From positions 2,579-66,578 of the forward strand of contig JASEGZ010000006.1 of assembly GCA_030018935.1 (NCBI GenBank): 64,000 bases of DNA, read 5' to 3'. The position numbers and the translations under genes are program-made. The DNA comes from Syntrophales bacterium (lineage in GTDB: Bacteria > Desulfobacterota > Syntrophia > Syntrophales > CG2-30-49-12). This document shows, in pieces, positions 40,400-55,771 of the stretch (position 1 is its first letter; each line of letters begins with the position of its first letter). Under the pieces are notes generated by a model. That model was not told the DNA's origin and ran no database searches. It saw nothing but the letters and a program-made list of their open reading frames with translations.

Positions 40400-40482
40400 G
40401 TCATAAGTCGTAAGTCATAAGTCGTAAGTCATAAGTCATAAGTCATAAGTCATAAGTCATAAGTCATAAGTCATAAGTCGTA
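40400..40482. repeat. tandem heptamer array (GTCATAA/GTCGTAA), about 12 units
   Basis: 11 full units plus one partial, in perfect 7-nt register. It lies between the divergent FAH and fabD genes. Confidence 0.9.
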
Positions 40483-40545: not shown

Positions 40546-41520
40546 GTGATATTAGAGAACAGCAAAATTATGGAAGAGAAGGGTACAGCGATCGTTTTCC
40601 CCGGTCAGGGGTCTCAACGACCCGGCATGGGGAAAGACTTTCACGATAATATTCAAGTCAGCCGGGACACTTACCGGGAGGCTTCCGATGCCCTAAGGTG
40701 GGATGTGGCTGCCATGTGCTTTGGAGAAGATGAGCGGCTCAATCTTACTGAATATACCCAACCCTGTATCCTTACAACTGAAATTGCCATGGTTCGTGGC
40801 CTGTATGCCCTTTACGGTTTTTCACCGGCTCTTTTCGGGGGTCACAGTCTCGGTGAATTTACCGCCCTGGTCTGTGCTGGTGTCCTTCCGTTGGCGGAAA
40901 CCTTACGGATTGTCCAGATTCGTGGTCGTTTGATGCAGGAGGCGGTACCTTTAGGTCTCGGAGGTATGTCGGCGGTTATTGCGGAGGATTTAGATGTAGA
41001 TATTATCCGTCGTACCTTGGTGGAGCTCCCGCTTGATGTGGCGAATGTCAATTCCGCCAATCAGGTAGTGATCAGTGGTAAACTAAAAGCCATGCCCGAG
41101 GCGGAGGCAAGGCTACGGAAGACACTGGGCGGGGATCGGCCGTTTCGCTTCGTTCCCCTCAATGTGAGCGCCCCCTTTCACAGCCGTTTTATGAAACCGA
41201 TTGAGGGGCCCTTTGAGGAGGCGTTCCGGACTTATGGAAGGGGTTTAAATCCCGAAAAGGCAGGGAAGGTAACCTCCAATTATAAGGGGGGATTTCATTC
41301 TGCCCATCACGAGGAAATCCTAAGAAGCATGGTGTCTCAATTAAGTAACACCGTCCAATGGAAGGAAAACATGAAGACACTTGCCCGGCAAGCAGATACG
41401 ATCTATGAGGTTGGTCCCGGCCGTCCTCTCCGGGAGTTTTTCCGGACAATCAATGTAACCTGTTCATCAGTGACGACCCTTTCCGCAGCAGAGCGATTGT
41501 TTGAGGAAAATAGGGAATAA
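40546..41520 (+). CDS. fabD: malonyl-CoA:ACP transacylase
   Basis: VFPGQGSQRPGMG, GHSLGEFTAL, QVVISG. The probable start is the ATG at 40570 (MEEKG...). Confidence 0.9.
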   Translation: MILENSKIMEEKGTAIVFPGQGSQRPGMGKDFHDNIQVSRDTYREASDALRWDVAAMCFGEDERLNLTEYTQPCILTTEIAMVRGLYALYGFSPALFGGHSLGEFTALVCAGVLPLAETLRIVQIRGRLMQEAVPLGLGGMSAVIAEDLDVDIIRRTLVELPLDVANVNSANQVVISGKLKAMPEAEARLRKTLGGDRPFRFVPLNVSAPFHSRFMKPIEGPFEEAFRTYGRGLNPEKAGKVTSNYKGGFHSAHHEEILRSMVSQLSNTVQWKENMKTLARQADTIYEVGPGRPLREFFRTINVTCSSVTTLSAAERLFEENRE

Positions 41521-41526
41521 GATATT

Positions 41527-41577
41527 AAGTCATACGTCTTATGACTTATGACTTATGACTTACGACTTACGACTTAA
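41527..41577. repeat. tandem heptamer array (CTTATGA/CTTACGA), inverted relative to 40400-40482
   Basis: aagtcatacgt cttatga cttatga cttatga cttacga cttacga cttaa. The units are the reverse complement of GTCATAA/GTCGTAA. Confidence 0.9.
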
Positions 41578-41591
41578 TTTCAGGGGGCCAG

Positions 41592-42791
41592 ATGGATTTC
41601 AATCTCACGGATAGCCAACAAATGTATGTCGAACTGGTAAGTAAGTTTGTCAGGAACGAGATAATCCCTTGCGCAATGGTCCTGGAAAGGGATCATGTAT
41701 TTCCCATGGAGATCATCGCCAAGGCGTGGGAGATCGGGATCATGAACCTCTCCATCCCTGAGTCCGTCAAGGGATATGAGGTGGATGTTATCTCCACCGC
41801 AATGATTGTCAAGGAATTGTCTTACGGAGATACAGGTATCGCAACATCAGTAATGTGTAACGATCTGGCAAATGCGGTTGTTGCGCAACATGGTACGGAT
41901 GAACAAAAAGAGGCTTTTCTGAAACCTTTTGTGGAGAGTCCCCTTCTTGCCTCTTTCTGTCTGACAGAACCGGGGGCCGGTTCCGATAACTCTGCCATGA
42001 CGACTTTCATCAGGAAAAGGGACGAGGGGACGTACCTCCTCAACGGTGCAAAATGCTTCATTACCAATGCCTCCTATGCCTCACAATTCACCGTTTTGTG
42101 CAAAGTCGGGAAGCCTACCGGTAATTTTATGGCCTGTGCGATCGTTCCTTTACCACCAACATCCCGCCATGATGCAACTTCCCCTGTTCTCGAAAGTAAA
42201 GAGATCGCTCTTCCCTATGGCGGGAAGATACTCATCGGCAAACCGGAAGATAAATTAGGTCAGCGTCTCTCAAATACTGCCAGTGTGACCTTTGAAGATG
42301 TTGTCATCGAGAATGACCAGATAATAGGCGACAGGAGATTGGGGTTCAAGTATATCATAGATGTTCTTGACTACGCCCGGCCAATGGTAGCGGCAATTGG
42401 TGCAGGCCTTGCCCGGAGGGCCCTGGACATCACACTGGCATACACAAAAGAACGAAGACAATTTGGACAGAGGATCTGTGACCTGCCCATCGCACGGGAT
42501 ACTTTAGTTAAGATGTGGAAAAAAGTTGAACTGGCAGATCTGGCGCTGATAAGGGCAGCCTGCAAGGTTCAGGAAAATGCCCCGGACAGAGGTATCTACG
42601 CCTCTTTTGCCAAGAATGTCGCCGCAGAAGCAGCCCTCTTCTGTGCTAACGAGGGTCTCCATCTCCATGGCGGTTATGGTTTCATCTCAGAATATGAGAT
42701 CTCAAAACTGGCAAGGGATGTTCATATTATTGATATTTATGAGGGTGTCCGGGAGGTCCAAGATATGATCATCGGAAGGGAGATCGTGTAA
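41592..42791 (+). CDS. acyl-CoA (or acyl-ACP) dehydrogenase family flavoprotein
   Basis: FCLTEPGAGSD, HGGYGFISEYEISKLARD, IDIYEGVREVQ. Confidence 0.9.
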   Translation: MDFNLTDSQQMYVELVSKFVRNEIIPCAMVLERDHVFPMEIIAKAWEIGIMNLSIPESVKGYEVDVISTAMIVKELSYGDTGIATSVMCNDLANAVVAQHGTDEQKEAFLKPFVESPLLASFCLTEPGAGSDNSAMTTFIRKRDEGTYLLNGAKCFITNASYASQFTVLCKVGKPTGNFMACAIVPLPPTSRHDATSPVLESKEIALPYGGKILIGKPEDKLGQRLSNTASVTFEDVVIENDQIIGDRRLGFKYIIDVLDYARPMVAAIGAGLARRALDITLAYTKERRQFGQRICDLPIARDTLVKMWKKVELADLALIRAACKVQENAPDRGIYASFAKNVAAEAALFCANEGLHLHGGYGFISEYEISKLARDVHIIDIYEGVREVQDMIIGREIV

Positions 42792-42794
42792 TTT

Positions 42795-43790
42795 ATGCTC
42801 TATCTTCATGGTCTAGGTCATTTTTTCCCAGAAAACATCATTACCAATCAGTTTCTCGAAGAGCTGGATATAGGAACGACCGATGAGTGGATTCTCGAGA
42901 GGGTCGGTATCCGCACCCGCCACACGGTTCTTCCTCTGGATTATATAAAGATGACAAAAAACCGCGATATACGGGCGGCGCTTGAAGCCAGCATGTATAA
43001 TCATGCCCAGATAGGAGCCGCTGCTGCCCGGATGGCCCTTGAGCAGGCTGGAATCAAAAAAGAAGATATCGGGCTTCTCATCTCGGGGAGTTCCGCTCCC
43101 GATAATGTCTCCCCTGCAGAGGCATCTGTCATCGCGGCGGAATTGGAAATCGAAGTCCCCGGCTTTGATATGCACTCGGCCTGTTCGACTTTCGGCATGC
43201 AGATCAATTTCCTTAATAAGATGAAGCCGGAGGCGTTGCCCCCTTTCACCTTAGTGGTTGTCCCGGAAACCAGCACTCTTTGTATGAATTATTCTGATCG
43301 AAGTAGCGCCGTGCTTTTCGGTGATGCGAGCGCCGCTGCTGTCGTATCCACTACCGTCCCTTCACGGATAGCCTGTATTACATCTGATTTTGGTGCGAAA
43401 CCCTCAGACTGGGACAAGGTGAATGTCCCCCGGCTGGACTACTTCCGGCAGGACGGGAATGCAGTGCAGAAATTTGCCATTCGTAAGACGGCGGAATTGT
43501 TACGTCAGTTGTTACCGTCTTTTCCTGTAAAGGCGGAGCGCTTAAAATTTATCGGCCATCAGGCAAATTGGGGTATGCTGCGTACTGTCTGTGAGCTTAC
43601 GGGTATCGAGGAAGATAATCACTGGTCCAATGTGGTGGATTTCGGCAATACGGCGGCGGCCGGCGCCCCCGGTGTCTTGAGCCAACACTGGCATGAACTC
43701 CGCCCCGGGGATTATATCGCCATTATTGTGGTAGGAGCGGGACTTTCCTGGTCTCCTCTAATGCTGAGGGTGGAAGAAGAGACGCAATAG
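42795..43790 (+). CDS. KAS III-type (FabH-like) 3-oxoacyl synthase
   Basis: Cys-His-Asn triad contexts DMHSACSTFG, GHQANWGML, FGNTAAAGAP. Confidence 0.85.
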   Translation: MLYLHGLGHFFPENIITNQFLEELDIGTTDEWILERVGIRTRHTVLPLDYIKMTKNRDIRAALEASMYNHAQIGAAAARMALEQAGIKKEDIGLLISGSSAPDNVSPAEASVIAAELEIEVPGFDMHSACSTFGMQINFLNKMKPEALPPFTLVVVPETSTLCMNYSDRSSAVLFGDASAAAVVSTTVPSRIACITSDFGAKPSDWDKVNVPRLDYFRQDGNAVQKFAIRKTAELLRQLLPSFPVKAERLKFIGHQANWGMLRTVCELTGIEEDNHWSNVVDFGNTAAAGAPGVLSQHWHELRPGDYIAIIVVGAGLSWSPLMLRVEEETQ

Positions 43791-43800
43791 GAGGTGGTTT

Positions 43801-44535
43801 ATGAGCGAGAAACCGGTCGCCATTGTAACCGGCGGTGGCACGGGTATCGGCGCTACATGCTGTCGAGCCCTTGGAAAGGTGGGATTCCGGGTATGCATTC
43901 ACTACCGGGGCAGTGAGGATGAGGAGGGGGCAAAGGCCGTTCTTTCTGAAGTCAGGGATAGTTTTCTTCTCCAGGCAGACCTGACAGATCTCGATCAGGT
44001 GGAAGCGATGGTTTCCCATTTAAAAGGGGCATCAGAGGAGGTTGAAGTTTTAGTCAACAATGCGGGAATTACCATCAATAGCGCAATCAACGGGATGAAA
44101 ATTGCGGAATTCGACGCGCAACGCGCCATGGTACGGGGCGTCTGGTACCTTACCAAACGAATATTGCGTTTATTCTTGCTCCGGAAGAACAGGGGACGTA
44201 TCATAAATATATCCAGTGTCGTGGGACACACGGGTAACGCCGGTCAGATCCCCTACACGATGGAAAAGGCAGCCCTCGATGCCTTTACAAAATCCCTGGC
44301 CAAGGAGTTGGTCGGGCGCAATATCCTGGTAAATTCAGTTGCTCCGGGGTTTATTGATACGGGCATGACGGAACATCTGCCGAAAGAGGTGCGGGAAAGG
44401 GTCCTTGCCGGCATCCCTCTGGGCCGTATGGGACGTCCCGAGGAAGTGGCCGAGGTGGTAGCCTTTCTCGCGACAGGCGCCTCTTACATTACCGGTAGTG
44501 TTATCCATGTAAACGGGGGGCTGTACGGTGGCTGA
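43801..44535 (+). CDS. fabG: 3-oxoacyl-ACP reductase (SDR)
   Basis: TGGGTGIG, NNAG, S...YxxxK (PYTMEKAAL), PGFIDT. Confidence 0.9.
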   Translation: MSEKPVAIVTGGGTGIGATCCRALGKVGFRVCIHYRGSEDEEGAKAVLSEVRDSFLLQADLTDLDQVEAMVSHLKGASEEVEVLVNNAGITINSAINGMKIAEFDAQRAMVRGVWYLTKRILRLFLLRKNRGRIINISSVVGHTGNAGQIPYTMEKAALDAFTKSLAKELVGRNILVNSVAPGFIDTGMTEHLPKEVRERVLAGIPLGRMGRPEEVAEVVAFLATGASYITGSVIHVNGGLYGG

Positions 44536-44577
44536 GGATTTGGTTCCGGCTTGTCCGGGTTAGGGAGTTATTTATAG

Positions 44578-45855
44578 ATGAGAAACAGAGTTGTCGTAAC
44601 AGGCATGGGGGTTGTGGCCCCCAATGCCCATGGTTTAGATAACTTTGAGGCGGCTCTCCGGGAGGGTCGCTCAGGCATTCGATTTTTGCTGGAGCTTGCG
44701 GCATTAAATTTCTCCTGTCAGATAGGTGGTATTCCCCAGGATTTTGAGAGTATCCGGCAGAGATATTTTGACGAGGAAAAACTGCTCTCGATGAATGACA
44801 ATATTGGGTATGCCTCCGTTGCCTCCGTGGATGCCTGGAATGATGCAGGTCTTATCGTACCCGACCCTGAAGGTGAAGTAGTGGATTGGGACACGGGTGT
44901 AATCGTCGGCTCCGGCATCGGCGGCATGGATACGATTGCCAAGATACTTGTTCCCATGGTTAACGAGGGTAAGAGCCGCCGTCTGGGAAGCACCGTTGCG
45001 GAACAGGTCATGCACAGCGGAACCAGCGCCCGTATTGCCGGCTTACTGGCATTGGGAAACCAGGTAACCTCAAATTCCTCCGCCTGTAGTACAGGAAACG
45101 AGGCGATAATAGATGCCACGTGGAGGATCCGTGTAGGGTTGGCCAAACGTATCCTGGCCGGCGGATCTGAAGGGGCGTCTCCCTATATATGGGCCGGTTT
45201 TGATGCGATGCGCGTCATCGCCCGCAAGTTTAACGACCGGCCGCAAGAGGCTTCACGACCCATGAGTGCAACGGCAAACGGTTTTGTCCCCAGCGCCGGG
45301 GCGGCTATTCTTATGCTTGAAGAATTAGAGTGCGCTTTGCAGCGTGGGGCGCGCATATACGCAGAGGTTATTGGAGGATATGTTAACTGTGGCGGACAGA
45401 GGACCGGTGGTTCTATGACAGCTCCCAATCCAGATGGGGTAAGGCGCTGTATCAGAGGCGCTATCGCTGATGCAGGCATTGATGCCCGTCAGATAGACAG
45501 TATTAACGGTCACCTGACTGCCACCTTTGCCGATCCCCTCGAGGTGAAGAACTGGTCAGAGGTCCTGGGACGCGGCCCCGGAGACTTTCCCTATATCAAT
45601 GCCACCAAGTCAGTAATCGGCCATTGCCTGGGAGCAGCCGGGGCTATAGAAAGTGTGGCGGTTGTTTTGCAGCTTTACAAAGGATTCCTTCATCCATCAC
45701 TTAATTGTGAGGATATCCACCCAGACATCGCTTCTTTCTCGGAGAAGGTACCGCGGACATGTATGGAGTTTCCAGCGTTGCGAATCATTGCCAAGGCGGC
45801 TTTCGGTTTTGGTGATGTCAACAGTTGCTTGATTTTTAAGAAATGGGAAGGATAA
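44578..45855 (+). CDS. KAS I/II-type (FabF/FabB-like) beta-ketoacyl synthase
   Basis: Active-site contexts SSACSTGNEAI, INGHLTAT, SVIGHCLGAAGAIE. Confidence 0.9.
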   Translation: MRNRVVVTGMGVVAPNAHGLDNFEAALREGRSGIRFLLELAALNFSCQIGGIPQDFESIRQRYFDEEKLLSMNDNIGYASVASVDAWNDAGLIVPDPEGEVVDWDTGVIVGSGIGGMDTIAKILVPMVNEGKSRRLGSTVAEQVMHSGTSARIAGLLALGNQVTSNSSACSTGNEAIIDATWRIRVGLAKRILAGGSEGASPYIWAGFDAMRVIARKFNDRPQEASRPMSATANGFVPSAGAAILMLEELECALQRGARIYAEVIGGYVNCGGQRTGGSMTAPNPDGVRRCIRGAIADAGIDARQIDSINGHLTATFADPLEVKNWSEVLGRGPGDFPYINATKSVIGHCLGAAGAIESVAVVLQLYKGFLHPSLNCEDIHPDIASFSEKVPRTCMEFPALRIIAKAAFGFGDVNSCLIFKKWEG

Positions 45856-45884
45856 TTTAAAAAAATTTTTACGAGGAGAAAAGT

Positions 45885-46142
45885 ATGGACGAAAAGAAAA
45901 TCTATGAAGAATTAACAAATATTTTGAGACTTTACGCAAAAAATCCAGAAGAGCTTGAAAAAGCTACGAGAGATACCCATATCTTAAATGATCTCAAGGT
46001 AAATTCCGCACGTCTCGTAGATGTTATTATCAAATGCGAGGATGTTTTTGGTATCAGCATAGAAGACGATGAGGCGGATAAAATAAGAACCATAGGAGAT
46101 GCACTGGAGATTATAAAGGGTAAAGTAGAAGTGACTGCTTAA
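45885..46142 (+). CDS. divergent acyl carrier protein
   Basis: 85 aa and acidic. The helix-II context LKVNSARLVDVIIKCEDVFGISIEDDE has a Ser in the phosphopantetheine position, in place of the canonical DSLD. Confidence 0.75.
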   Translation: MDEKKIYEELTNILRLYAKNPEELEKATRDTHILNDLKVNSARLVDVIIKCEDVFGISIEDDEADKIRTIGDALEIIKGKVEVTA

Positions 46143-46251
46143 TATCAGGGTATAATTAAGGCGAAAGTTTTTCGATGTCTCCAAAAATGTTATTAAGCAG
46201 GTATCATAATTCTTTGAAGGATAGTTTGTTTCCGATAAGTTCGGAGAATGG

Positions 46252-47082
46252 GTGATGATGACAAGTGTAACCAAAGGGCTTTTACAACTTCAATATATTC
46301 TGGGTTGGATGGCAATCTTTATCCTTGGCCCACTATATTTCACTGCCATCAAACTGATGAGATACCGGGTGAGGGGCCTCAAGGAACTCAGGCGGGAATT
46401 TTCCCTGCAACTCAAAAAGCATGAAGGTCCATGGATCATCTGTGCCAATCACCTGACGATGGTTGATTCTATGCTCTTAACCTATTCAATTGCATCGTTA
46501 TGCACCCACCTCAGGCATTATCGAGTGCTTCCGTGGAATTTACCGGAACGGGATAATTTTCAGCGGAGCATCTTCCTGACGGTGTTCTGTTACCTGGCCA
46601 AATGTATTCCTATCAATCGCGGCGGCGATCGCAAAGAAATGAAAAAGACACTCGATAAGTGTGCCTACCTCTTGAGGAAGAAGCAGCCTCTGATGATTTT
46701 CCCGGAGGGGGGGCGTTCCCGTACCGGCCGTGTGGATGCGGAAAATTTCTCTTACGGCGTGGGCCGTTTTATCAAGGATGTTGATAATTGTAAGGTTATG
46801 TGTATTTATCTCCGGGGTGACGGTCAGGAGACCTACGGGACAATTCCTAAGTTTGGTGAACGTTTTACCGCGCTCGTGAGTGTCCTCGAACCACAAAAGA
46901 CGGAGCATAGTGGTCTCCGCGCGCAACGATACTATGCCGAGGAAATTATAAAACGCTTGGCGCAACTGGAGGAAGATTACTTTGTCTTACGTGGGCAACG
47001 ATATAGTGGACTTGACCGATGCCGGTGCGAGGGGAAAGAGCCGGAATATACGCTTCGTCAACCGCGTTTTTATTCCAGATGA
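46252..47082 (+). CDS. PlsC-like lysophospholipid/1-acylglycerol-3-phosphate acyltransferase
   Basis: N-terminal TM segment, HX4D box (NHLTMVD) and FPEGGRSRTG. The last ~30 codons overlap the next gene and may not all be coding. Confidence 0.8.
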   Translation: MMMTSVTKGLLQLQYILGWMAIFILGPLYFTAIKLMRYRVRGLKELRREFSLQLKKHEGPWIICANHLTMVDSMLLTYSIASLCTHLRHYRVLPWNLPERDNFQRSIFLTVFCYLAKCIPINRGGDRKEMKKTLDKCAYLLRKKQPLMIFPEGGRSRTGRVDAENFSYGVGRFIKDVDNCKVMCIYLRGDGQETYGTIPKFGERFTALVSVLEPQKTEHSGLRAQRYYAEEIIKRLAQLEEDYFVLRGQRYSGLDRCRCEGKEPEYTLRQPRFYSR

Positions 47083-47662
47083 GCAGAGGCAAATATTTGA
47101 CTCTTCGCATCCCGATATCGTACTCTGGGCTTTGTGGGCCGGTAAGGAAACTGCGTATAAGATTATAAGAAAATCTATCTCTGGCGCTCCTTTCATACCG
47201 TTACTTTATAAAGTAAGCTGCCCAGAAAATTGTAAAAGGGCAGGCAGGTTTCCCCTCGAAAATGACCATATTCCTGGAATTACTGATACACCGTGGGGTA
47301 AAGTTACAATAAGAATCTTCATTACCTGCGATTACATACACTGTATCGGAACCATGGATCTTTCAGGAGGAATAGATTCAGTCGTCTGGAAGGTAGACCT
47401 TCTTCCTCCAGTCGCGGAAGCTATAGCGGAATATGAAGATGAATCGGCCTTTCTGCGTGAAACTATCAGAAGACATCTCTCGGTATTTCTGAATCGGACT
47501 CCAGAAGAAATTGAGATACGGCGTTCCGAAGGCGCCTTAGGCCCCCCCTTCGTATACTTAAAAGATAAGCCTGCCGGGATTGATATCAGTCTAAGTCATG
47601 ACGGCAAGTTTACCGCTTATGCCTTCATAATTTCCGGTGATAAGCTGTTCTCTATTTCTTAA
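46982..47662 (+). CDS. 4'-phosphopantetheinyl transferase
   Basis: VGNDIVDL, WAGKETAYK, ISLSHDGKFTAYAF. The start is uncertain (TTG 46982 or GTG 46991). It overlaps the acyltransferase ORF by ~100 nt. Confidence 0.7.
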   Translation: MSYVGNDIVDLTDAGARGKSRNIRFVNRVFIPDEQRQIFDSSHPDIVLWALWAGKETAYKIIRKSISGAPFIPLLYKVSCPENCKRAGRFPLENDHIPGITDTPWGKVTIRIFITCDYIHCIGTMDLSGGIDSVVWKVDLLPPVAEAIAEYEDESAFLRETIRRHLSVFLNRTPEEIEIRRSEGALGPPFVYLKDKPAGIDISLSHDGKFTAYAFIISGDKLFSIS

Positions 47663-47706
47663 ATTTATCAACTAAGCTTTGTAAACCAGAATTTTACGAA
47701 ATCATC

Positions 47707-48492
47707 ATGATTGCTGCCATAGAACGTTTAGGCGATGCCTCTCTCAACACAACCAGATCATTACGGGATACCATTTCCTTTGCCATGCGGGTCATTTTAA
47801 GGATGTTTGACAGAAAAACTTACAACAGCGCCATGAAGATGGTTCTCATCGATCAGATATATTTTACCTCTGTCCAGATTTTACCTTTATTTATAACTGC
47901 TTCGGTTATCTTTGGTTCACTTTTGACCGGCATCGTTTTTAAAGTTATTAAAGATTTGGGTTTGGTAGAATACTTAGGGCGCATCTTGATGGGTTTTGTG
48001 GTTACAGAAATGTCCCCCTTTATTACTGTAATGCTGATTGCCCTGCGGTCAAGTTCTGCCATTAATACCGAAGTTGCCGTGATGAAAGTCAATAAGGAAT
48101 TAAAAACGTTGGAAGTGTTTAATATTGATGTTATCAACTACCTGTTCTTACCAAGGATCATCAATGGTATGATATCACTTATCTTATTGAGCAGCCTTTT
48201 TTCCATTGTGGTTTTGACAAGCGGTTTATTATTCTCCAGGATTATACTGGGGATGAGTCTGGACGCTTATACCCGTGTTCTATTAACTTCGGTTGATTTT
48301 TCTGATATAATTATTCTCATTTTAAAATGTGCCACCTTTGGCTTTTTTATTACATTACTTCCCATACGATGCGGTATGACTGCTTCCAACGAGTTGACAA
48401 GTATCCCCGTTTCGGTCTTAAATGGGATGGTAAAGGTCTTTATCTCTATCGTGATCATTGAGGTGCTGACATTAATCGCAAGGTCTATTTAA
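47707..48492 (+). CDS. mlaE: MlaE-family ABC transporter permease
   Basis: 261 aa and multi-TM, with typical MlaE/YrbE layout and conserved region (QIYFTSVQILPLFITASVIFG). Confidence 0.85.
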   Translation: MIAAIERLGDASLNTTRSLRDTISFAMRVILRMFDRKTYNSAMKMVLIDQIYFTSVQILPLFITASVIFGSLLTGIVFKVIKDLGLVEYLGRILMGFVVTEMSPFITVMLIALRSSSAINTEVAVMKVNKELKTLEVFNIDVINYLFLPRIINGMISLILLSSLFSIVVLTSGLLFSRIILGMSLDAYTRVLLTSVDFSDIIILILKCATFGFFITLLPIRCGMTASNELTSIPVSVLNGMVKVFISIVIIEVLTLIARSI

Positions 48493-48527
48493 GGCTCTTT
48501 GAAGACAGAGATATACTCAACAGAGAG

Positions 48528-48953
48528 TTGGAAGAATTTATCACAGAAAACAAAGGGCGGCTGGGTTTGGTTTCCCTTGATGCGCCTCTCATCTCGAACC
48601 TTGATGTATGGATCAATATTGCCCTGATCAGGGAGTATCACCAGAATCTACCGAGAACGGAAGCGGAGGATATGGTCTTTGAATATCTGCGAAGATATGG
48701 CATGGAAAACACGGCATATAAAAGAAACTCTGCTTTAACTAACAGAGAGCGGTTTTGTGCGATGCTTTTGAGGGCCGCGATGGTCGCGGATGCCGTCATC
48801 GTGATTGACAGACCTTTTACGATAATACCGGATCTTAAAGATGCCTCCTTTATTGACGAGGCCATAAAAACGAGCGACGATCTGTTTACACAGTGCCATA
48901 TTTTCGACTATACATGGAACAAAGACCGTTACAGGATGAGTGATGCCTGCTAA
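48528..48953 (+). CDS. N-terminally truncated, degenerate ABC ATPase (MlaF position) lacking a Walker A
   Basis: Only the Q-loop-to-Walker-B part is recognisable: RLGLVSLDAPLISNLDVWINIAL, degenerate signature ALTNRERFCAMLLRA, and Walker-B-like VIVIDRPF. The frame is open back to the mlaE stop, but there is no room for a P-loop. Confidence 0.6.
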   Translation: MEEFITENKGRLGLVSLDAPLISNLDVWINIALIREYHQNLPRTEAEDMVFEYLRRYGMENTAYKRNSALTNRERFCAMLLRAAMVADAVIVIDRPFTIIPDLKDASFIDEAIKTSDDLFTQCHIFDYTWNKDRYRMSDAC

Positions 48954-49863
48954 AAAAATTGAATTCAAAGTTGGGTTGTTTATCATTGTGACGACACTAT
49001 TGATCATTGGCTCCTTAGGGTATGTAGCCTATAAAAAGGGAATCTTTGAGGAAGTACATACCTTTACCCTCTCGTCGAAATCGGGCGAAGAACTGACAGA
49101 GGGGATGCCCGTCGTTTTTGCGGGTTTCAAGATAGGTGTTGTCCATAGCTTAGAGCTCAGTGAGAACGGAAGTGTTATTATCAAGATCAGGGTACCGGAA
49201 CGTCACGTCAAGTGGATAAGGTCAGACAGCAGGTTCATCGTCAATAAACCTTTCATCGGTTCCTCCCGTATTGTCGTCTTGACGGATGACTTGGGCAGTC
49301 CTGTGTTGTCAAAGGAAAAAGTGCCAGAGGTGACCACAGCCAGTGACATCAACGAGGCGATAAAGAAACTCCAGCCAATCTTTGAAGAAGTGAATAAGAT
49401 AACGGCAAATGTCGAAAAAGTGACGGCGAATCTGGCTGATCCCCAGGGCGACGTGCGGAAAATTCTGAGAAACTCCGAGCAAATCACCGCTCAAGTTGAT
49501 TCCATCCTTAAAGACGATGTGCGAGAAATTTTGAAAAACTCCGAGCAAGTCACCGTCCGGGTTGATTCCATCCTTCAAAAGGTGGATACGATGGCGGCAA
49601 AGACTGATGAAACGATGTACGGGAAAGAGGGACTTCTGTCCCTGGTGCGCAAAATCCTTGAAGACTTGCTTGTTAAGCTTGGGAGAATAGATGCCGCCCT
49701 TGATAATGTCGTCAAGATCAGCGCTGATACGGCTGACGCCACAACGGATCTTAGACTATTGAGAAGCGAGATCGAGGCGACCGTGAATTCTATTAACGAC
49801 ATGGTAAAGGAATTGAACAGAAAGATACCCTTTAAAGAGAAACCTGAGATAAAACTTCCATGA
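48940..49863 (+). CDS. mlaD: MlaD/MCE-domain protein with an extended helical C-terminus
   Basis: N-terminal TM anchor (VGLFIIVTTLLIIGSLGYVAY), MCE domain (GMPVVFAGFKIGVVHSLEL), and helical repeats in the C-terminal half. Confidence 0.8.
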   Translation: MMPAKKIEFKVGLFIIVTTLLIIGSLGYVAYKKGIFEEVHTFTLSSKSGEELTEGMPVVFAGFKIGVVHSLELSENGSVIIKIRVPERHVKWIRSDSRFIVNKPFIGSSRIVVLTDDLGSPVLSKEKVPEVTTASDINEAIKKLQPIFEEVNKITANVEKVTANLADPQGDVRKILRNSEQITAQVDSILKDDVREILKNSEQVTVRVDSILQKVDTMAAKTDETMYGKEGLLSLVRKILEDLLVKLGRIDAALDNVVKISADTADATTDLRLLRSEIEATVNSINDMVKELNRKIPFKEKPEIKLP

Positions 49864-50522
49864 AGATATTTTTATGTTTATTCGCTTTTTCTATCTTGCT
49901 TGTCGGGTGCGGAGCAAAGCCTGTCCCTAACTGGAAAAATGTGAGCTTCCATCAACTGGAAAGTTATAAAAAGAGCTATTTAATCGGCAAGGTGAGGATC
50001 GCCGAACTCCACTTCTCTAAAGCCATAGAAGAGATAAAGAAAAGCGGCGATCTGAACATCCTGGCCATGGCTTACCTGACAAAATACGCCGTAAACGTCG
50101 CTGTCCTTGAGGATTTCGATGATCGTGATTATTTACAGATAGACTCTGTGCAACATGATCCTAAGAACAAGAACTTTTACAACTTTTTAAAAGGTGTCTT
50201 TGATCAGGTTGATGAAAGGTTGCTTCCCGGGGAGTACAGGAATTTCCTCAAGACTCTCAGGCATGGGAGGGAGGGTGCAATGGAACAGGAAATTGCCAAC
50301 ATAGAGGATCCCCTCTCGAAACTCATTGCCACCGGTTTGCTTGTGCGACATCACAGGTGCCCTGAGATGATTTTGCAGGTCGCTGCCGATACGGCTTCAG
50401 CGAACGGGTGGAAGAAGGCCCTCGTGGCCTATCTCGAAAAGCTTCAGTCCATCTACGAAGCAAAAAAAGAGATGGAAAAAGCAGCCAATGTTCAAAAGAG
50501 GCTCCAGCTTATAAAGAATTAA
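49860..50522 (+). CDS. lipoprotein of unknown function, last gene of the Mla-like operon
   Basis: Lipobox LLVGC. The start overlaps the mlaD stop (ATGA). Confidence 0.6.
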   Translation: MKIFLCLFAFSILLVGCGAKPVPNWKNVSFHQLESYKKSYLIGKVRIAELHFSKAIEEIKKSGDLNILAMAYLTKYAVNVAVLEDFDDRDYLQIDSVQHDPKNKNFYNFLKGVFDQVDERLLPGEYRNFLKTLRHGREGAMEQEIANIEDPLSKLIATGLLVRHHRCPEMILQVAADTASANGWKKALVAYLEKLQSIYEAKKEMEKAANVQKRLQLIKN

Positions 50523-50661: not shown

Positions 50662-50937
50662 ATGAGCATTACGGTAATAATTCCGGGTTCATTGAAAGAC
50701 TGGTTCGGTAGCAGTGATCAGGCTACCTGTGAGGGGAAAACCATGGGGGAGTGCATTGATGATCTTGACAGTAAATTCCCCGGCTTTAGACGCAGAGTGG
50801 TTGATGAAAAAGGGGGGATCAGTAGTTCTGTCATGATCTTCCTTGATGGACAGAACCTCCGATCACTGGACGGGCTGGCCACTCCTGTGAAGGATGGCGA
50901 TGAGGTAAGCATTATTCCTTTTGCGGCAGGGGGGTGA
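50662..50937 (+). CDS. MoaD/ThiS-family ubiquitin-like beta-grasp protein with a C-terminal Gly-Gly
   Basis: 91 aa, ending ...VKDGDEVSIIPFAAGG-stop. RBS gaagga lies upstream of the ATG. Confidence 0.8.
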   Translation: MSITVIIPGSLKDWFGSSDQATCEGKTMGECIDDLDSKFPGFRRRVVDEKGGISSSVMIFLDGQNLRSLDGLATPVKDGDEVSIIPFAAGG

Positions 50938-51469
50938 TAAAAAAAAGATGATTGTAGACAAACCGGAGTCCCATTTTATCTTTGTCTTCCACCCAAAAAT
51001 CTTCGAGGGCAAGAAGTACACGGTATATGAGGGCAAAGAGCTCACCAACGGTGAGGTTCTTCAATACTGGGGGAAGTGGATTGTCCTGGGAGAAAGGCCA
51101 TGGCTTGATGAATTGGCCCGAAAGCTTGACCGGTACGTAGAAGAGGAGGTAATCCCCTGTATCAAATATGATCGCAACCCTTCTGTGAACCTTGGTCTGG
51201 CAGAAGCTGTCATGATGGTGTACTGCGACAGGCGCAAAAGTGAGGAGATCTGGCAGATACTCCGGCAGCATGGGGTAAGGATCAAGGCCTGGGTCTCGGA
51301 ACGGGAGACGATGGAGATGTGGAAACCCGGCGGAGTACTGTTGGAACGGTGGATTGCCTCAATGAATCTCGATGAAGAGGAGGCCAGGGCTACCCGGGAG
51401 GATGCAGGAACAAGCCTGGGTTATATTTTTGATCACCCCGACGAGATCTTTTCCCCTTGGGCACAGTGA
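50921..51469 (+). CDS. uncharacterised 173-182-aa protein translationally coupled to the Ubl gene
   Basis: Clean ORF. The likely start is the ATG at 50948 (MIVDKPES...), 11 nt after the Ubl stop. The motif run GKWIVLGERPWLDELARKL...VMMVYCD...WVSERETMEMW faintly recalls DUF1917/BLES03-like proteins. This resemblance is from memory only and unverified. Confidence 0.6.
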   Translation: MRQGGDKKKMIVDKPESHFIFVFHPKIFEGKKYTVYEGKELTNGEVLQYWGKWIVLGERPWLDELARKLDRYVEEEVIPCIKYDRNPSVNLGLAEAVMMVYCDRRKSEEIWQILRQHGVRIKAWVSERETMEMWKPGGVLLERWIASMNLDEEEARATREDAGTSLGYIFDHPDEIFSPWAQ

Positions 51470-51509
51470 AGATAAACGGTGTGGTATTTGAAATCTTAAG
51501 GGAGGGAAC

Positions 51510-52388
51510 ATGGTTGACTTTGCAAAACAGTTGAAGGTTCCATCACTGGACCCCTACTTTTTTGTCCTCGAGGAGGACAGGATTAACATGGACAGGCTGG
51601 AGAAGCTCTCGGAGAGGCATCCGATTAACATCCTCATAACTGGTAATCAGGGGTGCGGTAAATCCTCTCTAATAAGACAGTTTGCCAGTTATTATCAGAG
51701 ACCTATGGCCATCTTTCAGGTAGGGCTCCTTTTAGAGGCCGGGCAGCTTTTTGGGCAGCAGAGGTTGAAAGATGGTGAAACCTTTTATCAGAGTTTCTTA
51801 TTTCCCAGGGTCATTCGTGTCCCAGGGTGTGTCATCCATCTGGAAGAGATCAACAGGTCTGAGAACCCCCATGCCTTGAATGAGCTCTTTTCGGTACTGT
51901 CAGAGGAGCGAAGCATCTGGATTGATGAGCTTGGCCTTGTTGAGGTAGCTCCCCGGGTGATCTTTTTTGCCACCATGAATGAAGGTGTAGAATTTTCAGG
52001 TACGGATGAACTGGATGCCGCCCTGAAGGACCGGTTTTACCGCATCCGTCTTGAATACCCTCCTGTAAGTATAGAAAAGGAGATCCTTGTCCTTAAAACT
52101 GGCGTTTCCCCGTCTGTGGCGGGTGACATTCTCAACATAGTGAATAAATTGAGAAGCAACAAACAGTCACCTATTGATATCTCTATAAGGCACAGCCTGA
52201 TGATTGCGGAACTTGCCGCCACGGGGGCGCCTTTACGGGAGGCCATTATCTATAGCCTTCAGATATCAATGGATATCCTCGAATCGTTGCTCCTTTCCAT
52301 CCATGTGGAAACGGGTGATACGGAGGTAGAACCCCGTCGTTACGAACGATATGTTCCACCAGGCTATATTCCGTCGCAGGGAGGTTGA
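51510..52388 (+). CDS. MoxR/AAA_5-type AAA+ ATPase (CobS/CbbQ/NorQ/CoxD-like)
   Basis: Walker A GNQGCGKS, Walker B VIHLEEIN, sensor ATMN, LKDRF; RBS ggaggg. Confidence 0.88.
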   Translation: MVDFAKQLKVPSLDPYFFVLEEDRINMDRLEKLSERHPINILITGNQGCGKSSLIRQFASYYQRPMAIFQVGLLLEAGQLFGQQRLKDGETFYQSFLFPRVIRVPGCVIHLEEINRSENPHALNELFSVLSEERSIWIDELGLVEVAPRVIFFATMNEGVEFSGTDELDAALKDRFYRIRLEYPPVSIEKEILVLKTGVSPSVAGDILNIVNKLRSNKQSPIDISIRHSLMIAELAATGAPLREAIIYSLQISMDILESLLLSIHVETGDTEVEPRRYERYVPPGYIPSQGG

Positions 52389-54151
52389 TACCGGTGAATA
52401 TCAAAATTGCCGAGAGTAATAATGCACCAGCCAAGAATTACATAGCTCCAGAAGGCCCTCAAAAGGCGTACTCCAGATACTGGCGGAAGAATTATTCCCG
52501 TCATGAGGCTACTGAGCTGGCTACAGTTCTGACTGCCATGCGCAAGGTAGCCGGTCACATCGGCATTAATGTCAAACCTGTTTTCTGGCGGGGCATGTCC
52601 GCTTCTCCAGATAATTCTATTGTCTTGGAGCCGGCTGAAGTCAGGGGAATGTATCCCGTTCCTTTCCGAAAAATTGACCTTCTGGTGGGGCAGGTTGTCC
52701 GCGAGGCCTTTGGGTGTATTGAATGGGGTGACTGGGTAAAAGACCAGGTCAAACAACGGCGCTCCCCATTACCGGAAGGGCTAAAAGATTATCTGAGTAG
52801 TTTTATCTCTGTCGTGGAAGACCTGTACATCGCTGAACTGGTCCGCCCCACCGTCTGGCACCTTTACCTCTCAAAATATTGGGGATTTCTTATCCGCAAA
52901 AGGGAAAGGGATCCTTCACTCCCGCCAACCGCAGCAAGTCTGGCGAGTATCTGGCGGGGAATGGTGTTCTTTCAAACCTTGCCCGATAATCTTCACCATT
53001 ACTATGACGATCTGATAGAAATCTTGCTGGAATATTCTCAGACCATTAGAGAGCTAAAGGGTCTTTCCACACTGGCCGAGAGGAGAAATAGAAGAGTCGA
53101 GATATACCTTGAGATGTGGGACCGCATTTGCTCGATCATTGAAGAGTGGGAAAAGTTTGTCCCCTCTCCCGATGGGGTGAATATTCAGGATGAGGCCGCC
53201 CCCAAGGTCAAAACGCCCGAGGCCTTGAGAGAAGAAAAGGAAGAGAATCCTGACCGGGATGATAATAAAGAAGAGGAGCCAGCGGGGCTTGATGAGGAAC
53301 TTGCCGCTCAGATCAGTTTCAAGCTGGATGAGGGAGAGTCTGATTTAACCCAGCATATATCGGTGGCTGTTGAGGATCCTCAGGCAAAGGCAATGAATAC
53401 AAGCTTCACCCGGGCAGTTGCCAAATGCAATGTAAGTGCAGATCAATCACAGGTGGAACGTTTAAAGAGAATATTCCAGAGACAGAAGGCCCTGATCAGA
53501 AGAGCGAGAATAAAAGGTATTATAAGGGGCGTGGATATGGGAAAGATAGATGCCCGGAGACTATATCGAGTACCTCTGGATGGTAAGATATTTAAAAGGA
53601 AAGACATTTCAGGTTCTGACTACTCATGGAACATCAGTATTGTAGCAGATGCCTCAGCCTCCATGGCAGGAAGGGGAATAACCGATAGAGCGTGGACGGT
53701 GGCGGAGCAGACCTTTGTCTCCCTTACGGAAGCGGCAAAGGGTTTCTTTAATCGTCTGGAGGTTTTCGGTTATCAGGAACAGACCCGCCAGTGCAATCTC
53801 GTACGGCTATACCAGGGAGGTGAATTATACACCATAATTCCTACAGGCCAGACCCCGACGGGTCAGGCAATCATAGCCGCCGCCATGCTCATGAAAAGGA
53901 ACGATAAAAGAAAGTTGATCATTCATATTACCGATGGGGCTGCAAATTGCGGGCTGAACGTGGTTGATGCCCTGGAGTACTGCCAGAAAAACAGGATCGA
54001 ACTCATAACTATCGGGTGCGGGTGTAATCTCCAGACAAGACAGTTTCTACTGGAACGGTATCCCCGGGGGACGGTTTATCTGATGGATGACATTCGGAAC
54101 TTACCGGAAGGTCTGGAAAATCTTTTTCGGGACAGGCTCTTAAAGAAGTAA
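52385..54151 (+). CDS. CobT/NorD/CoxE-like protein with an acidic linker and a C-terminal VWA (MIDAS) domain
   Basis: Acidic stretch EEKEENPDRDDNKEEEPAGLDEE. MIDAS elements VADASASM ... TPTGQA ... HITDGAAN. It overlaps the AAA+ stop. GTG at 52394 is the better-spaced start behind gggagg. Confidence 0.85.
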   Translation: MIPVNIKIAESNNAPAKNYIAPEGPQKAYSRYWRKNYSRHEATELATVLTAMRKVAGHIGINVKPVFWRGMSASPDNSIVLEPAEVRGMYPVPFRKIDLLVGQVVREAFGCIEWGDWVKDQVKQRRSPLPEGLKDYLSSFISVVEDLYIAELVRPTVWHLYLSKYWGFLIRKRERDPSLPPTAASLASIWRGMVFFQTLPDNLHHYYDDLIEILLEYSQTIRELKGLSTLAERRNRRVEIYLEMWDRICSIIEEWEKFVPSPDGVNIQDEAAPKVKTPEALREEKEENPDRDDNKEEEPAGLDEELAAQISFKLDEGESDLTQHISVAVEDPQAKAMNTSFTRAVAKCNVSADQSQVERLKRIFQRQKALIRRARIKGIIRGVDMGKIDARRLYRVPLDGKIFKRKDISGSDYSWNISIVADASASMAGRGITDRAWTVAEQTFVSLTEAAKGFFNRLEVFGYQEQTRQCNLVRLYQGGELYTIIPTGQTPTGQAIIAAAMLMKRNDKRKLIIHITDGAANCGLNVVDALEYCQKNRIELITIGCGCNLQTRQFLLERYPRGTVYLMDDIRNLPEGLENLFRDRLLKK

Positions 54152-54167
54152 CATTAGCAATCAATAG

Positions 54168-54313
54168 GCGTTCAGCTATCAGCTATCAGCAAAAGCAGAA
54201 AGATACAAGGGGAAGTCCACAACTCCGGGGGCAAGTTTTCCTGCGTAAGTTAAGGCGCAGGCTAAAGCCTGCGGCTACAATTTATTGATTGCTGATCGCT
54301 GATGGCTGAATGC
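54168..54313. repeat. long hairpin with 7-nt-periodic arms (CAGCTAT/GCTGATn) enclosing a GTAG-REP hairpin (54254-54278)
   Basis: gcgttcagctatcagctatcagcaa (54168-54192) pairs with ttgctgatcgctgatggctgaatgc (54289-54313). The inner ggcgcaggctaaagcctgcggctac is identical to 8250-8274. Confidence 0.75.
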
Positions 54314-54337
54314 TTGCATTAAGGTGGTGGTGAGGCC

Positions 54338-54479
54338 ATGGTGATTGGGGAGAGCACCGTTGTTAGTATGCATCTTACCCTGAAGGACCAGAGCGGAAGG
54401 GTGTTGGAGAGTACCATGGGCAGGAATGGAACTTCACTATGAGGTACAGATTCTGGATGTAAGGCCGGATAACCAGTAG
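54338..54479 (+). pseudogene. remnant of an FKBP-type (SlyD/FkpB-like) peptidyl-prolyl isomerase with its middle deleted
   Basis: MVIGESTVVSMHLTLKDQSGRVLEST... matches a SlyD-type N-terminus and stops at 54440. A second frame gives MELHYEVQILDVRPDNQ-stop, a typical FKBP C-terminal strand. About 100 central residues are absent. Confidence 0.55.
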
Positions 54480-54480
54480 T

Positions 54481-55686
54481 TTGTGCTCTACGGAAGACCG
54501 CGAATTTTCACCAGAGGCGATAGGTGATAGCCCCTTGCCTCAAATTTTTACTGACCGAGCAAGCCAGATGGAAGATGAAAGAGGCAATTTTGTAGATATC
54601 ACGCGGGAGAAGTTTTACCGGGCAGTGGCGGAGTGTAAGCCCCTCTTTGCCTGGTTTAGTCTCACCGATGCCTGTAACCTGAACTGCAAGTATTGTTTTA
54701 CCGATGCCAAGTACTATCCTCCGGGTTCCCCAGACCCCCCTCATCATGAATTGAGTACAGAAGAGGTATTTAGTATTATTGATAATATTGCCGAAGCGGG
54801 CACTGAGATAGTGATGTTTGCCGGGGGGGAACCAACCTTGAGGGAAGATCTGGTTGAGATAGTGAGATATGCATCCAGCCGGATACGTGTGGCGATGAAC
54901 AGTAACGGTTATCTTTTAGATGAGCGTCTCTGCCGGGATTTGGCAAGGGCTGGTCTTTCCCAGGTAAAGATTAGCGTGGATGGTATGGAAAAGAATCATG
55001 ACTGGAATAGAGGGGAAGGGTCTTTCCAGAGGACGATGGATGCTCTCAGGAACCTGGTGAAGGTCGGTGTTCCCAAGGTAATATTGATCATGACACTTAC
55101 GAACCTGAATTATGATGAGCTGGGGAAAATGGTAGAGCTCTCCATGAATATGGGGATGGATTTTACCATGGTTGAGTTTCTGCCGTTGGGGAGGGCCTCT
55201 GAGGGAAAAGAATGGACCTTATCAAAGGAGCAGTTGGAAAGGGCACAGCGGTACTTAGTGGAAGCGCAAGACCGGTATGGATGGCAGAAAGTGTCCTTTG
55301 AAAACCGCTATATTGTTGCCGAAGACGAATACTGTAAGAGGATCTGCGCTGATCCGAACGAACCTTGCAATTTTTACGATTTCTGCGTGGGGTGTGTCAG
55401 CGGCATATATAGTTACTCTATAACCGCTTCCGGGAAAGTGACGACGGGAGATATAATGACCCTGGAAGTGGGTGATTTAAAAAAGGAAAAATTAAAGGAT
55501 ATCTGGGAAAATGCGGAATTGCTTAAAGTTATAAGGAACAGGGAAAATCTGAAGGGCAAGTGTGGAAAATGCCAGTACAGATATATCTGCGGGGGGTGCA
55601 GGAGGAGGGCCTATACCTATACAAGCGATCTCATGGCTGCTGACCCAGGCTGCTGGAGAGGCGCAGGTGACAAATCCGAGACCTAA
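54481..55686 (+). CDS. radical SAM enzyme with a SPASM-type C-terminal Fe-S domain
   Basis: CNLNCKYC (CxxxCxxC), GGEPTL, and C-terminal CGKCQYRYICGGCRRRAY plus additional Cys (CVGCVSG). The start is uncertain (TTG 54481 or ATG 54568). Confidence 0.9.
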   Translation: MCSTEDREFSPEAIGDSPLPQIFTDRASQMEDERGNFVDITREKFYRAVAECKPLFAWFSLTDACNLNCKYCFTDAKYYPPGSPDPPHHELSTEEVFSIIDNIAEAGTEIVMFAGGEPTLREDLVEIVRYASSRIRVAMNSNGYLLDERLCRDLARAGLSQVKISVDGMEKNHDWNRGEGSFQRTMDALRNLVKVGVPKVILIMTLTNLNYDELGKMVELSMNMGMDFTMVEFLPLGRASEGKEWTLSKEQLERAQRYLVEAQDRYGWQKVSFENRYIVAEDEYCKRICADPNEPCNFYDFCVGCVSGIYSYSITASGKVTTGDIMTLEVGDLKKEKLKDIWENAELLKVIRNRENLKGKCGKCQYRYICGGCRRRAYTYTSDLMAADPGCWRGAGDKSET

Positions 55687-55695
55687 CAGAAAATG

Positions 55696-55756
55696 AGACT
55701 GAAGACTGAAGACTGTTAGGAGGCTATCAGGCTCCTTCAGCCTTCAGCCTTTAGCC
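55696..55756. repeat. 7-nt-periodic hairpin (GACTGAA / CCTTCAG arms)
   Basis: agactgaagactgaagactgtt-aggaggctatcaggct-ccttcagccttcagcctttagcc. Confidence 0.7.
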
Positions 55757-55771
55757 TAAATACCTAATAAT

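Follow-up and report, generated by a model that had tools for sequence, protein, structure and literature searches.

Type II fatty-acid synthesis (FAS-II) is a drug target, and its enoyl-reductase and dehydratase steps are filled by unrelated enzymes across bacteria. In the canonical FAS-II cluster, the genes are arranged as plsX-fabH-fabD-fabG-acpP-fabF, with fabZ or fabA and the enoyl reductase genes fabI, fabK, fabL or fabV located elsewhere. The mycobacterial FAS-II system comprises the fabD-acpM-kasA-kasB operon together with MabA, HadABC and InhA. Downstream of chain synthesis, the mycobacterial protein PlsM is a PlsC homologue that acylates both glycerol-3-phosphate (G3P) and 1-acyl-G3P (PMC10593935). 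In this work, we analyzed a gene cluster at positions 40546-50522 of a 64,000-nucleotide stretch of a Syntrophales genome (hereafter the window; positions 2,579 to 66,578 of contig JASEGZ010000006.1, assembly GCA_030018935.1), in which FAS-II genes are followed by genes for lipid transport. A first-pass annotation had described the cluster as a self-contained, specialized FAS-II-like locus with a dedicated acyl carrier protein (ACP), phosphopantetheinyl transferase (PPTase) and acyltransferase, fused to an Mla-like transport operon. The reading that we favor, tentatively and with slightly less than even confidence, is that the locus is the core membrane-lipid operon of the Syntrophales, combining FAS-II initiation and elongation with a second carrier (ACP2), a PPTase and a PlsC-type acyltransferase, and that the family of the window genome has excised both dehydratases, with dehydration supplied in trans and an acyl-CoA dehydrogenase (ACAD) homologue serving as the reductase. 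The literature that we searched holds no account of the operon, of an ACAD-type enoyl-ACP reductase, or of fatty-acid synthesis in Syntrophus.

The window genome (G000) is a 2.07-Mb, 96%-complete metagenome-assembled genome (MAG) in 90 contigs, of which the window contig is C77. It was compared with a 99%-complete genome from another genus of the same family (G011) and with a single-contig relative of 3,179,300 bp (G073), which we take to be Syntrophus aciditrophicus SB. Order-wide counts refer to 151 sampled Syntrophales genomes, counts for the rest of the phylum to ~386 genomes, and synteny to 15 fetched loci of the operon in relatives. Gene identities were assigned by Pfam and NCBIfam profile matches, and further copies within a genome were sought by tblastn and with hidden Markov models (HMMs).

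The first-pass annotation had set the locus apart from the housekeeping fab operon, provided that it was not the only fab gene set of the genome. A separate canonical set, fabG-acpP-fabF, is indeed present on another contig (C48), where its genes score above the NCBIfam cut-offs, and a canonical AcpS is encoded on contig C50. No second FabD was found in the window genome by tblastn or HMM, the operon copy being the sole match, and no second FabH-type enzyme was found either, the other matches reaching at most 59.5 bits and lying in thiolase-like frames of ~480 aa. The complete genome of S. aciditrophicus encodes a single FabD, and this gene and those behind all strong FabA/FabZ matches belong to the operon; four of the five genomes tested have no FabH at E<=1e-20 other than the 3-ketoacyl-ACP synthase (KAS) III of the operon. 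Because no other copy of these functions was found, the operon is better regarded as the de novo fatty-acid synthesis system of the order than as a second one. The locus is neither self-contained nor redundant: it provides parts that the canonical set is without. The claim of self-containment fails on the dehydratase, which is encoded neither in the locus nor, as a FabA/FabZ domain, elsewhere in the genome.

The distribution of the operon is consistent with a housekeeping role. The operon acyltransferase is found in 133 of the 151 Syntrophales genomes, mostly as a single copy, and outside the order in 6 of the ~386 genomes of the phylum. A core of eight genes is collinear in 13 of the 15 loci, including that of S. 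aciditrophicus; in one of the two exceptions FabD is encoded elsewhere (G007), and the other is cut by a contig end. Synteny in relatives, which had been suggested as a check, thus reveals a core conserved across the Syntrophales and not a private side pathway.

In most relatives, the operon contains two extra genes: one for a 196-aa protein with a strong FabA domain, located between KAS III and FabG, and one for a 159-aa FabZ-like protein, located between FabG and the elongating KAS. Since operons outside the order also carry them, both dehydratase genes are ancestral. Both are gone from the window genome and from G011, and the window spacers at these two places measure just 10 bp (KAS III-FabG) and 42 bp (FabG-KAS), which agrees with the earlier remark that no dehydratase is visible in the locus. 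The FabA/FabZ-type domain PF07977 is found in 146 of the 151 Syntrophales genomes and is not found in G000 or G011; in the window genome, neither PF07977 nor TIGR01750 matched anywhere. Independent groundwater metagenome contigs span both junctions with the dehydratase gene absent, and the dehydratase-less form is therefore not an assembly artefact.

The genes that remain are not in decay. Between the two dehydratase-less genera, the ratio of nonsynonymous to synonymous substitution rates (dN/dS) falls within 0.08-0.27 for each of the 12 genes at dS of ~0.7-1.3, similar to the 0.02-0.29 obtained for dehydratase-bearing relatives of S. aciditrophicus; the values for the ACAD and the elongating KAS are 0.10 and 0.09, respectively. 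These ratios indicate that the remaining operon genes were kept by purifying selection after the loss of the dehydratases. It is true that two of the ten ancestral genes are gone and that the dN/dS of KAS III is 0.18 against 0.07 in relatives, as might be expected of a decaying relic that has been nonfunctional since the dehydratase loss. We consider such decay very improbable, because the frames contain no stops or frameshifts, the catalytic motifs are intact, the low ratios persist at dS ~1 between two genera, and the same form recurs in independent samples.

LpxC is present in the window genome, and ACP-bound (R)-3-hydroxyacyl chains are therefore required. In the scheme that we favor, the full elongation cycle would still be running, with the dehydration step contributed in trans by an enzyme other than FabZ; this scheme is preferred because selection has preserved the elongating KAS as well as a candidate for the reductase. 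MaoC-type hotdog hydratases would be the candidates for this step. MaoC domains were found in the window genome (four proteins), in G011 and in G032, and none was found in S. aciditrophicus. The candidates of the window genome include one on contig C19 (2545-3009) and a pair on contig C63.

The reductase candidate is the ACAD, which the first-pass annotation had noticed in the place where FabZ or FabI would be expected. It does occupy the reductase position, as operons outside the order carry a short-chain dehydrogenase/reductase (SDR) at the same slot: in three such collinear operons (G365, G518 and G343), the neighbor of FabD is an SDR of 312-319 aa with a Y-x6-K motif, YAA(I/V)SAAK, whose best NCBIfam match is FabL, and in G365 it lies exactly between FabD and KAS III. 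The window protein has the N-terminal, middle and C-terminal domains of the ACAD family together with its catalytic glutamate, which lies in the motif IYEG and is invariant in 15 orthologues (mean column identity of 80%). Its best relatives of solved structure are medium-chain acyl-CoA dehydrogenase (MCAD) and butyryl-CoA dehydrogenases, the list including Bcd and CarC, which are coupled to an electron-transfer flavoprotein (ETF, Etf), and its top NCBIfam match is an Etf-dependent acryloyl-CoA reductase. Given that it shares a slot with the Y-x6-K SDR of sister lineages and that its relatives include Etf-dependent reductive ACADs, the protein would act as the enoyl-thioester reductase of the cycle, taking electrons from an ETF. 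As the best reading of the comparison, an SDR enoyl reductase was likely replaced in situ by an ETF-dependent ACAD.

The search for other enoyl reductases in S. aciditrophicus agrees with this role, and the window locus encodes no enoyl reductase of the FabI, FabK, FabL or FabV type. Neither a FabI-type SDR nor a FabK-like gene was found in S. aciditrophicus; three SDRs were retrieved there at E<=1e-10, of which two match best as FabG and the third has the classical YxxxK motif, and all SDRs checked in the window genome are likewise of the YxxxK type. The FabV profile PF12241 matched nothing, controls included, and is thus uninformative. On a metagenome contig of 4651 bases from JGI (L075), genes for FixC, FixX and EtfB directly follow an acyltransferase-PPTase pair, with one further gene cut at the contig end; the acyltransferase is a distant relative of the window enzyme (38% identity), and the metagenomic contigs with such distant relatives are mostly too short for gene context. 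A predicted complex of two ACAD copies with ACP2 scored 0.01, which gives no verdict and was not used as evidence either way.

The same flavoprotein could in principle run oxidatively and, following the logic of MbtN or FabX, dehydrogenate saturated acyl-ACP2 to 2-enoyl-ACP2, either as a feature of the product or to give access to unsaturated chains. Acyl-carrier dehydrogenases (MbtN and prolyl-peptidyl-carrier-protein dehydrogenases) do occur among its NCBIfam and PDB matches, the catalytic glutamate is kept, and in the ancestral operon the ACAD is accompanied by a KAS I/II and a protein resembling FabA. However, these matches are far weaker than those to MCAD, Bcd and AcrC, the ACAD replaces a reductase-type Y-x6-K SDR at the same position of otherwise collinear operons, and the complete genome of S. 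aciditrophicus yielded no further enoyl reductase of a known type, so that we regard an oxidative role as rather improbable. With reduction retained as the preferred direction, a bolder proposal can be made: that the ACAD represents a new class of ETF-dependent enoyl-ACP reductase and the sole one of Syntrophales fatty-acid synthesis, and that the family of the window genome synthesizes fatty acids without a FabZ/FabA-type dehydratase by means of an unrecognized, non-homologous enzyme. This combined proposal is possible, although we hold it to be doubtful.

The carrier protein and the two genes that follow it form the second part of the operon. The motif reported as VNSARLVD in place of DSLD is real: DLKVNSARLVD is invariant in the ACP2 orthologues, and its Ser41 aligns with the serine of the AcpP DSL motif. 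ACP2 is 27-31% identical to the AcpP of the same genomes and falls outside the housekeeping AcpP family, with 41 bits against a cut-off of 70.45 and NSA instead of DSL. The idea of a private carrier with an activating PPTase has also stood up, since ACP2 shares the operon with its own PPTase and with an acyltransferase of the HX4D type. The PPTase carries an insert of ~100 residues ahead of its C-terminal SHDG strand, and its gene overlaps that of the acyltransferase by 101 nt, with a similar overlap in S. aciditrophicus. The acyltransferase has an N-terminal hydrophobic helix and the motifs HX4D (NHLTMVD) and FPEGGRS; it scores below the cut-off of TIGR00530 and is thus not a PlsC equivalog. 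In the proposed scheme, the PPTase would arm ACP2, and the PlsC-type acyltransferase would transfer the completed chain to a glycerolipid acceptor.

A census of PF01553 proteins suggests which acceptor this might be. The window genome and G011 each encode two such proteins, the operon enzyme and an 881-aa fusion of an AMP-ligase, an ACP and an acyltransferase; S. aciditrophicus encodes only the operon orthologue and one 271-aa PlsC. Searches of these three genomes detected neither PlsX nor PlsY, and no PlsB-type enzyme was found, given that PlsB would also match PF01553 and that the census yields two proteins per genome. Because two acylations of G3P are needed and PlsX, PlsY and PlsB-type enzymes were not found, the operon acyltransferase most likely performs one of these two housekeeping reactions. 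That a small enzyme of the lysophospholipid acyltransferase (LPLAT) type can start phosphatidic acid synthesis has a precedent in PlsM (PMC10593935). For the Syntrophales, the searched literature contains no description of how phosphatidic acid synthesis starts.

The gene for the 881-aa fusion lies on contig C75 of the window genome (2534-5179, minus strand), where it adjoins lptF/lptG, and forms of ~890 aa occur in other Syntrophales. It looks like a one-protein route for the salvage of fatty acids into lipids. The main alternative view of the whole operon can be built on this: in the family of the window genome, the locus might be a truncated salvage pathway without full cycles, in which KAS III (or the elongating KAS) adds a single C2 unit to an acyl-CoA from beta-oxidation and FabG then forms an (R)-3-hydroxyacyl-ACP for lipid A, while the fusion protein salvages the bulk chains from substrates and the two acyltransferases install them. 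The missing FabA/FabZ-type dehydratase in both G000 and G011, the presence of LpxC and LptFG, the fusion protein itself, more than 20 ACAD paralogues, which point to heavy beta-oxidation, and the small genome of 2.07 Mb would all fit. Nevertheless, such a pathway would have no use for the operon ACAD (omega 0.10) or the elongating KAS (omega 0.09), although both are constrained to the same degree as in the dehydratase-bearing relatives, and we judge it unlikely. The dehydratase-less family can be seen as a natural experiment in which the operon has been retained without hotdog dehydratases. Its retention suggests either an unrecognized dehydratase or a membrane economy that mixes partial synthesis with salvage from degraded hydrocarbons or fatty acids.

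Several observations weigh against the interpretation of the locus as a core operon with a complete cycle. All of its fab-type enzymes score under the NCBIfam equivalog cut-offs. The canonical AcpP-FabF-FabG set exists alongside it, giving two carrier systems with an unclear division of load. Several Syntrophales lineages are without the whole operon yet retain a FabD, and hence the operon is dispensable in some members of the order. The absences described above rest on a 96%-complete MAG in 90 contigs and are hence unproven, with the same pattern in the 99%-complete G011. No etf gene is adjacent to the window operon, and a FabK-like gene of the window genome (299 bits, cut-off 453) could be an alternative reductase. 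Finally, the MaoC-type candidates are flanked by CoA-transferases, thiolases and DUF35 proteins, which gives them a catabolic look.

The sub-threshold scores and the dispensability in some lineages would also suit the accessory pathway implied by the first-pass annotation, in which a specialized acyl chain is built on the private carrier, attached to a lipid acceptor and exported to the outer membrane by the Mla-like proteins, with bulk lipids made via the canonical AcpP. Further support for such a pathway comes from the distinct and strongly conserved ACP2 with its own PPTase beside a canonical AcpP/AcpS pair, from the existence of paralogous FabG and KAS enzymes, and from a motif of the -24/-12 (sigma-54) type, TGGCA-N7-TGC, upstream of fabD in many relatives, which suggests regulated expression. 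This motif is present in 7 of 13 loci, compared with ~0.03 expected per locus; it is absent upstream of fabD in the window and in G011. On the other hand, the canonical set is without FabD, FabH, a dehydratase and a reductase, all of which occur in the operon only; the operon acyltransferase, so widespread in the order, has a single companion of its kind in genomes without a PlsX or PlsY match; and in most genomes the Mla-like module lies apart from the operon, while it also occurs in genomes from which the operon is absent. A specialized function is accordingly unlikely, and the core membrane-lipid operon remains the reading that we prefer.

Two gene groups outside the operon were also noted. 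The first, on contig C19 of the window genome (20058-23163), holds the gene for the FabK-like flavoenzyme and, on its flanks, an intact crotonase gene and one that is apparently split into two overlapping open reading frames (ORFs); a glycyl radical enzyme is encoded a short way downstream of the group. The FabK-like protein and the crotonases were considered as a substitute reductase and dehydratase, and this idea was dropped: the FabK-like proteins of G011 share only 29-39% identity, and no crotonase genes flank them in the loci that were fetched, and the G000 copy also lies within a glycyl-radical-enzyme/CoA-ester operon. The second group is that of bioA and bioF in S. aciditrophicus (G073 contig C1, ~205500-211350), between which lie the gene for a third KAS, scoring 296 bits against FabF, and a small ORF that matches the FabA domain weakly; this looks like a dedicated pimeloyl-ACP module.

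The locus itself consists of 12 co-directional ORFs (Table 1). Each gene listed in the first-pass annotation is present, and only its total of eleven needs correction to the 12 that it had itemized. The start codon of FabD is uncertain by up to ~15 codons, as the orthologue alignments start at residues 1-15. KAS III retains its catalytic cysteine (ACS), histidine (HQAN) and asparagine (GNT), and the elongating KAS has the cysteine motif ACSTG and two histidine motifs. The latter enzyme is 34% identical to the canonical FabF and scores below the NCBIfam cut-offs of both FabF and KAS I; the operon FabG and the canonical FabG encoded on contig C48 are paralogues (37% identity). As a FAS-II system, the locus therefore contains the transacylase and condensing enzymes with intact triads and is without the FabZ/FabA dehydratase. 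Intergenic terminator-like sites at the locus were not more frequent than in shuffled sequence.

Table 1. Genes of the window locus with their profile matches and sequence features
Feature	Coordinates	Strand	Matches and features
FabD-type malonyl-CoA:ACP transacylase (MCAT)	40546..41520	+	PF00698, 92 bits; TIGR00128, 231 bits, E 1.9e-68 (cut-off 260.9)
ACAD flavoprotein in the enoyl-reductase slot	41592..42791	+	PF02771, PF02770 and PF00441, all above cut-offs
KAS III (FabH-type), initiating condensing enzyme	42795..43790	+	PF08541, PF08545; NF006829, 183 bits (below cut-off)
FabG-type 3-oxoacyl-ACP reductase	43801..44535	+	TIGR01830, 233 bits (cut-off 297.75)
Elongating KAS I/II-type condensing enzyme	44578..45855	+	PF00109, PF02801; TIGR03150, 292 bits (cut-off 493.75); KAS I model, 252 bits
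Carrier protein ACP2	45885..46142	+	PF00550, 22.3 bits; TIGR00517, 41 bits (cut-off 70.45)
LPLAT/PlsC-type acyltransferase, membrane-anchored	46252..47082	+	PF01553, 56.8 bits (cut-off 23); TIGR00530, 39 bits (cut-off 102.95)
AcpS-like PPTase	46982..47662	+	PF01648, 36.2 bits (cut-off 25), residues 4-67; C-terminal ISLSHDG strand
MlaE-family permease	47707..48492	+	PF02405, 147.9 bits
Half ABC-ATPase, 141 aa	48528..48953	+	Aligns to residues ~70-170 of solved nucleotide-binding domains (NBDs) including MlaF and LptB
MlaD/MCE-domain protein	48940..49863	+	PF02470, 29.5 bits, residues 41-109
Lipoprotein of an unnamed all-helical family, 220 aa	49860..50522	+	Lipobox LVGC

The last four genes of the locus belong to the Mla-like module. 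An MlaE permease and an MlaD protein with an MCE domain are present, the latter with an N-terminal hydrophobic helix and a long helical C-terminal half, and a catalytic MlaF ATPase is not. The ATPase-derived protein was correctly described as degenerate in the first-pass annotation: it spans the region from the Q-loop to Walker B, is without Walker A, and has a degenerate signature (LTNRE) and a degenerate Walker B (DRP). Its orthologues occur in 94 of the 151 Syntrophales genomes, and across the order it is conserved as a protein of ~140-190 aa encoded between MlaE and MlaD genes. From these features and a dN/dS of 0.25, the protein appears to be a non-catalytic NBD remnant kept by selection. 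The lipoprotein has no Pfam match, and a fold search against solved structures gave no match at E <= 0.001, only weak helical-repeat rows; its AF2 model (pLDDT 82) contains twelve helices, and its Atlas clusters are unnamed and mostly from Thermodesulfobacteriota. An MlaE paralogue is encoded on contig C70. The Mla-like tail adjoins the operon in two families only, that of the window genome and that of S. aciditrophicus. In most genomes, the half-ATPase gene is far from the operon (the two are located at 1.64 Mb and 1.87 Mb in G007), and it is also found in genomes without the FAS operon. The supposed fusion to an Mla-like operon is thus a local juxtaposition, and judging by gene neighborhoods, the MlaE, half-ATPase, MlaD and lipoprotein genes appear to form an independent lipid-transport module that happens to adjoin the operon in the window lineage.

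The genes upstream of the operon encode an FAA-hydrolase and DegP in the window and a histidine kinase in S. aciditrophicus. In the window, fabD is bracketed by inverted arrays of heptamer repeats (40400-40482 and 41527-41577): the upstream array reads (GTCATAA/GTCGTAA)n, and the downstream one is built of the reverse complement of this unit. The upstream array takes the place at which relatives carry the sigma-54-type motif. Directly downstream of the locus, at 50662-56518, Pfam matches reveal a module with genes for a ThiS-like protein, an orphan, a MoxR AAA+ protein, a VWA protein, a radical-SAM-SPASM protein and a ThiF-E1 protein.

What is new here is the dehydratase-less form of the operon, the evidence for its housekeeping status and the independence of the Mla-like module. 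The parts of the locus can be set against described systems. The MlaE permease, the single-MCE MlaD and the ABC-ATPase-derived protein are shared with MlaFEDB; unlike that system, the window ATPase is a fragment of 141 residues, the locus has no MlaB or MlaC gene, and its final gene encodes a helical lipoprotein from an unnamed family. The operon acyltransferase resembles PlsM at the family level, both being HX4D homologues of PlsC, whereas PlsM uses acyl-CoA as substrate and has no predicted membrane helix (PMC10593935). Butyryl-CoA dehydrogenase/EtfAB, CarC and AcrC belong to the same family as the window ACAD and physiologically reduce enoyl thioesters with Etf electrons; they differ in acting on CoA esters in energy metabolism, with genes beside etfAB, whereas the window ACAD, which contains an insertion within its middle domain, is encoded in a FAS operon that has no etf genes beside it. 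As in mycobacterial FAS-II, a dedicated second carrier is encoded with FabD and KAS genes, and the dehydration performed there by MaoC-type hotdog proteins instead of FabZ is a precedent for the proposed dehydratase in trans. The mycobacterial system differs in that it elongates FAS-I products to mycolic acid precursors, uses the SDR reductase InhA, and has an operon without an acyltransferase or a PPTase. The canonical FAS-II cluster also unites MCAT, KAS III, ketoreductase, elongating KAS and ACP in one operon and is likewise tied to the first step of phospholipid synthesis; compared with it, the Syntrophales operon has as its carrier a divergent second ACP, accompanied by a dedicated PPTase, an LPLAT acyltransferase in place of plsX, an ACAD in place of the reductase and, in the family of the window genome, no dehydratase.

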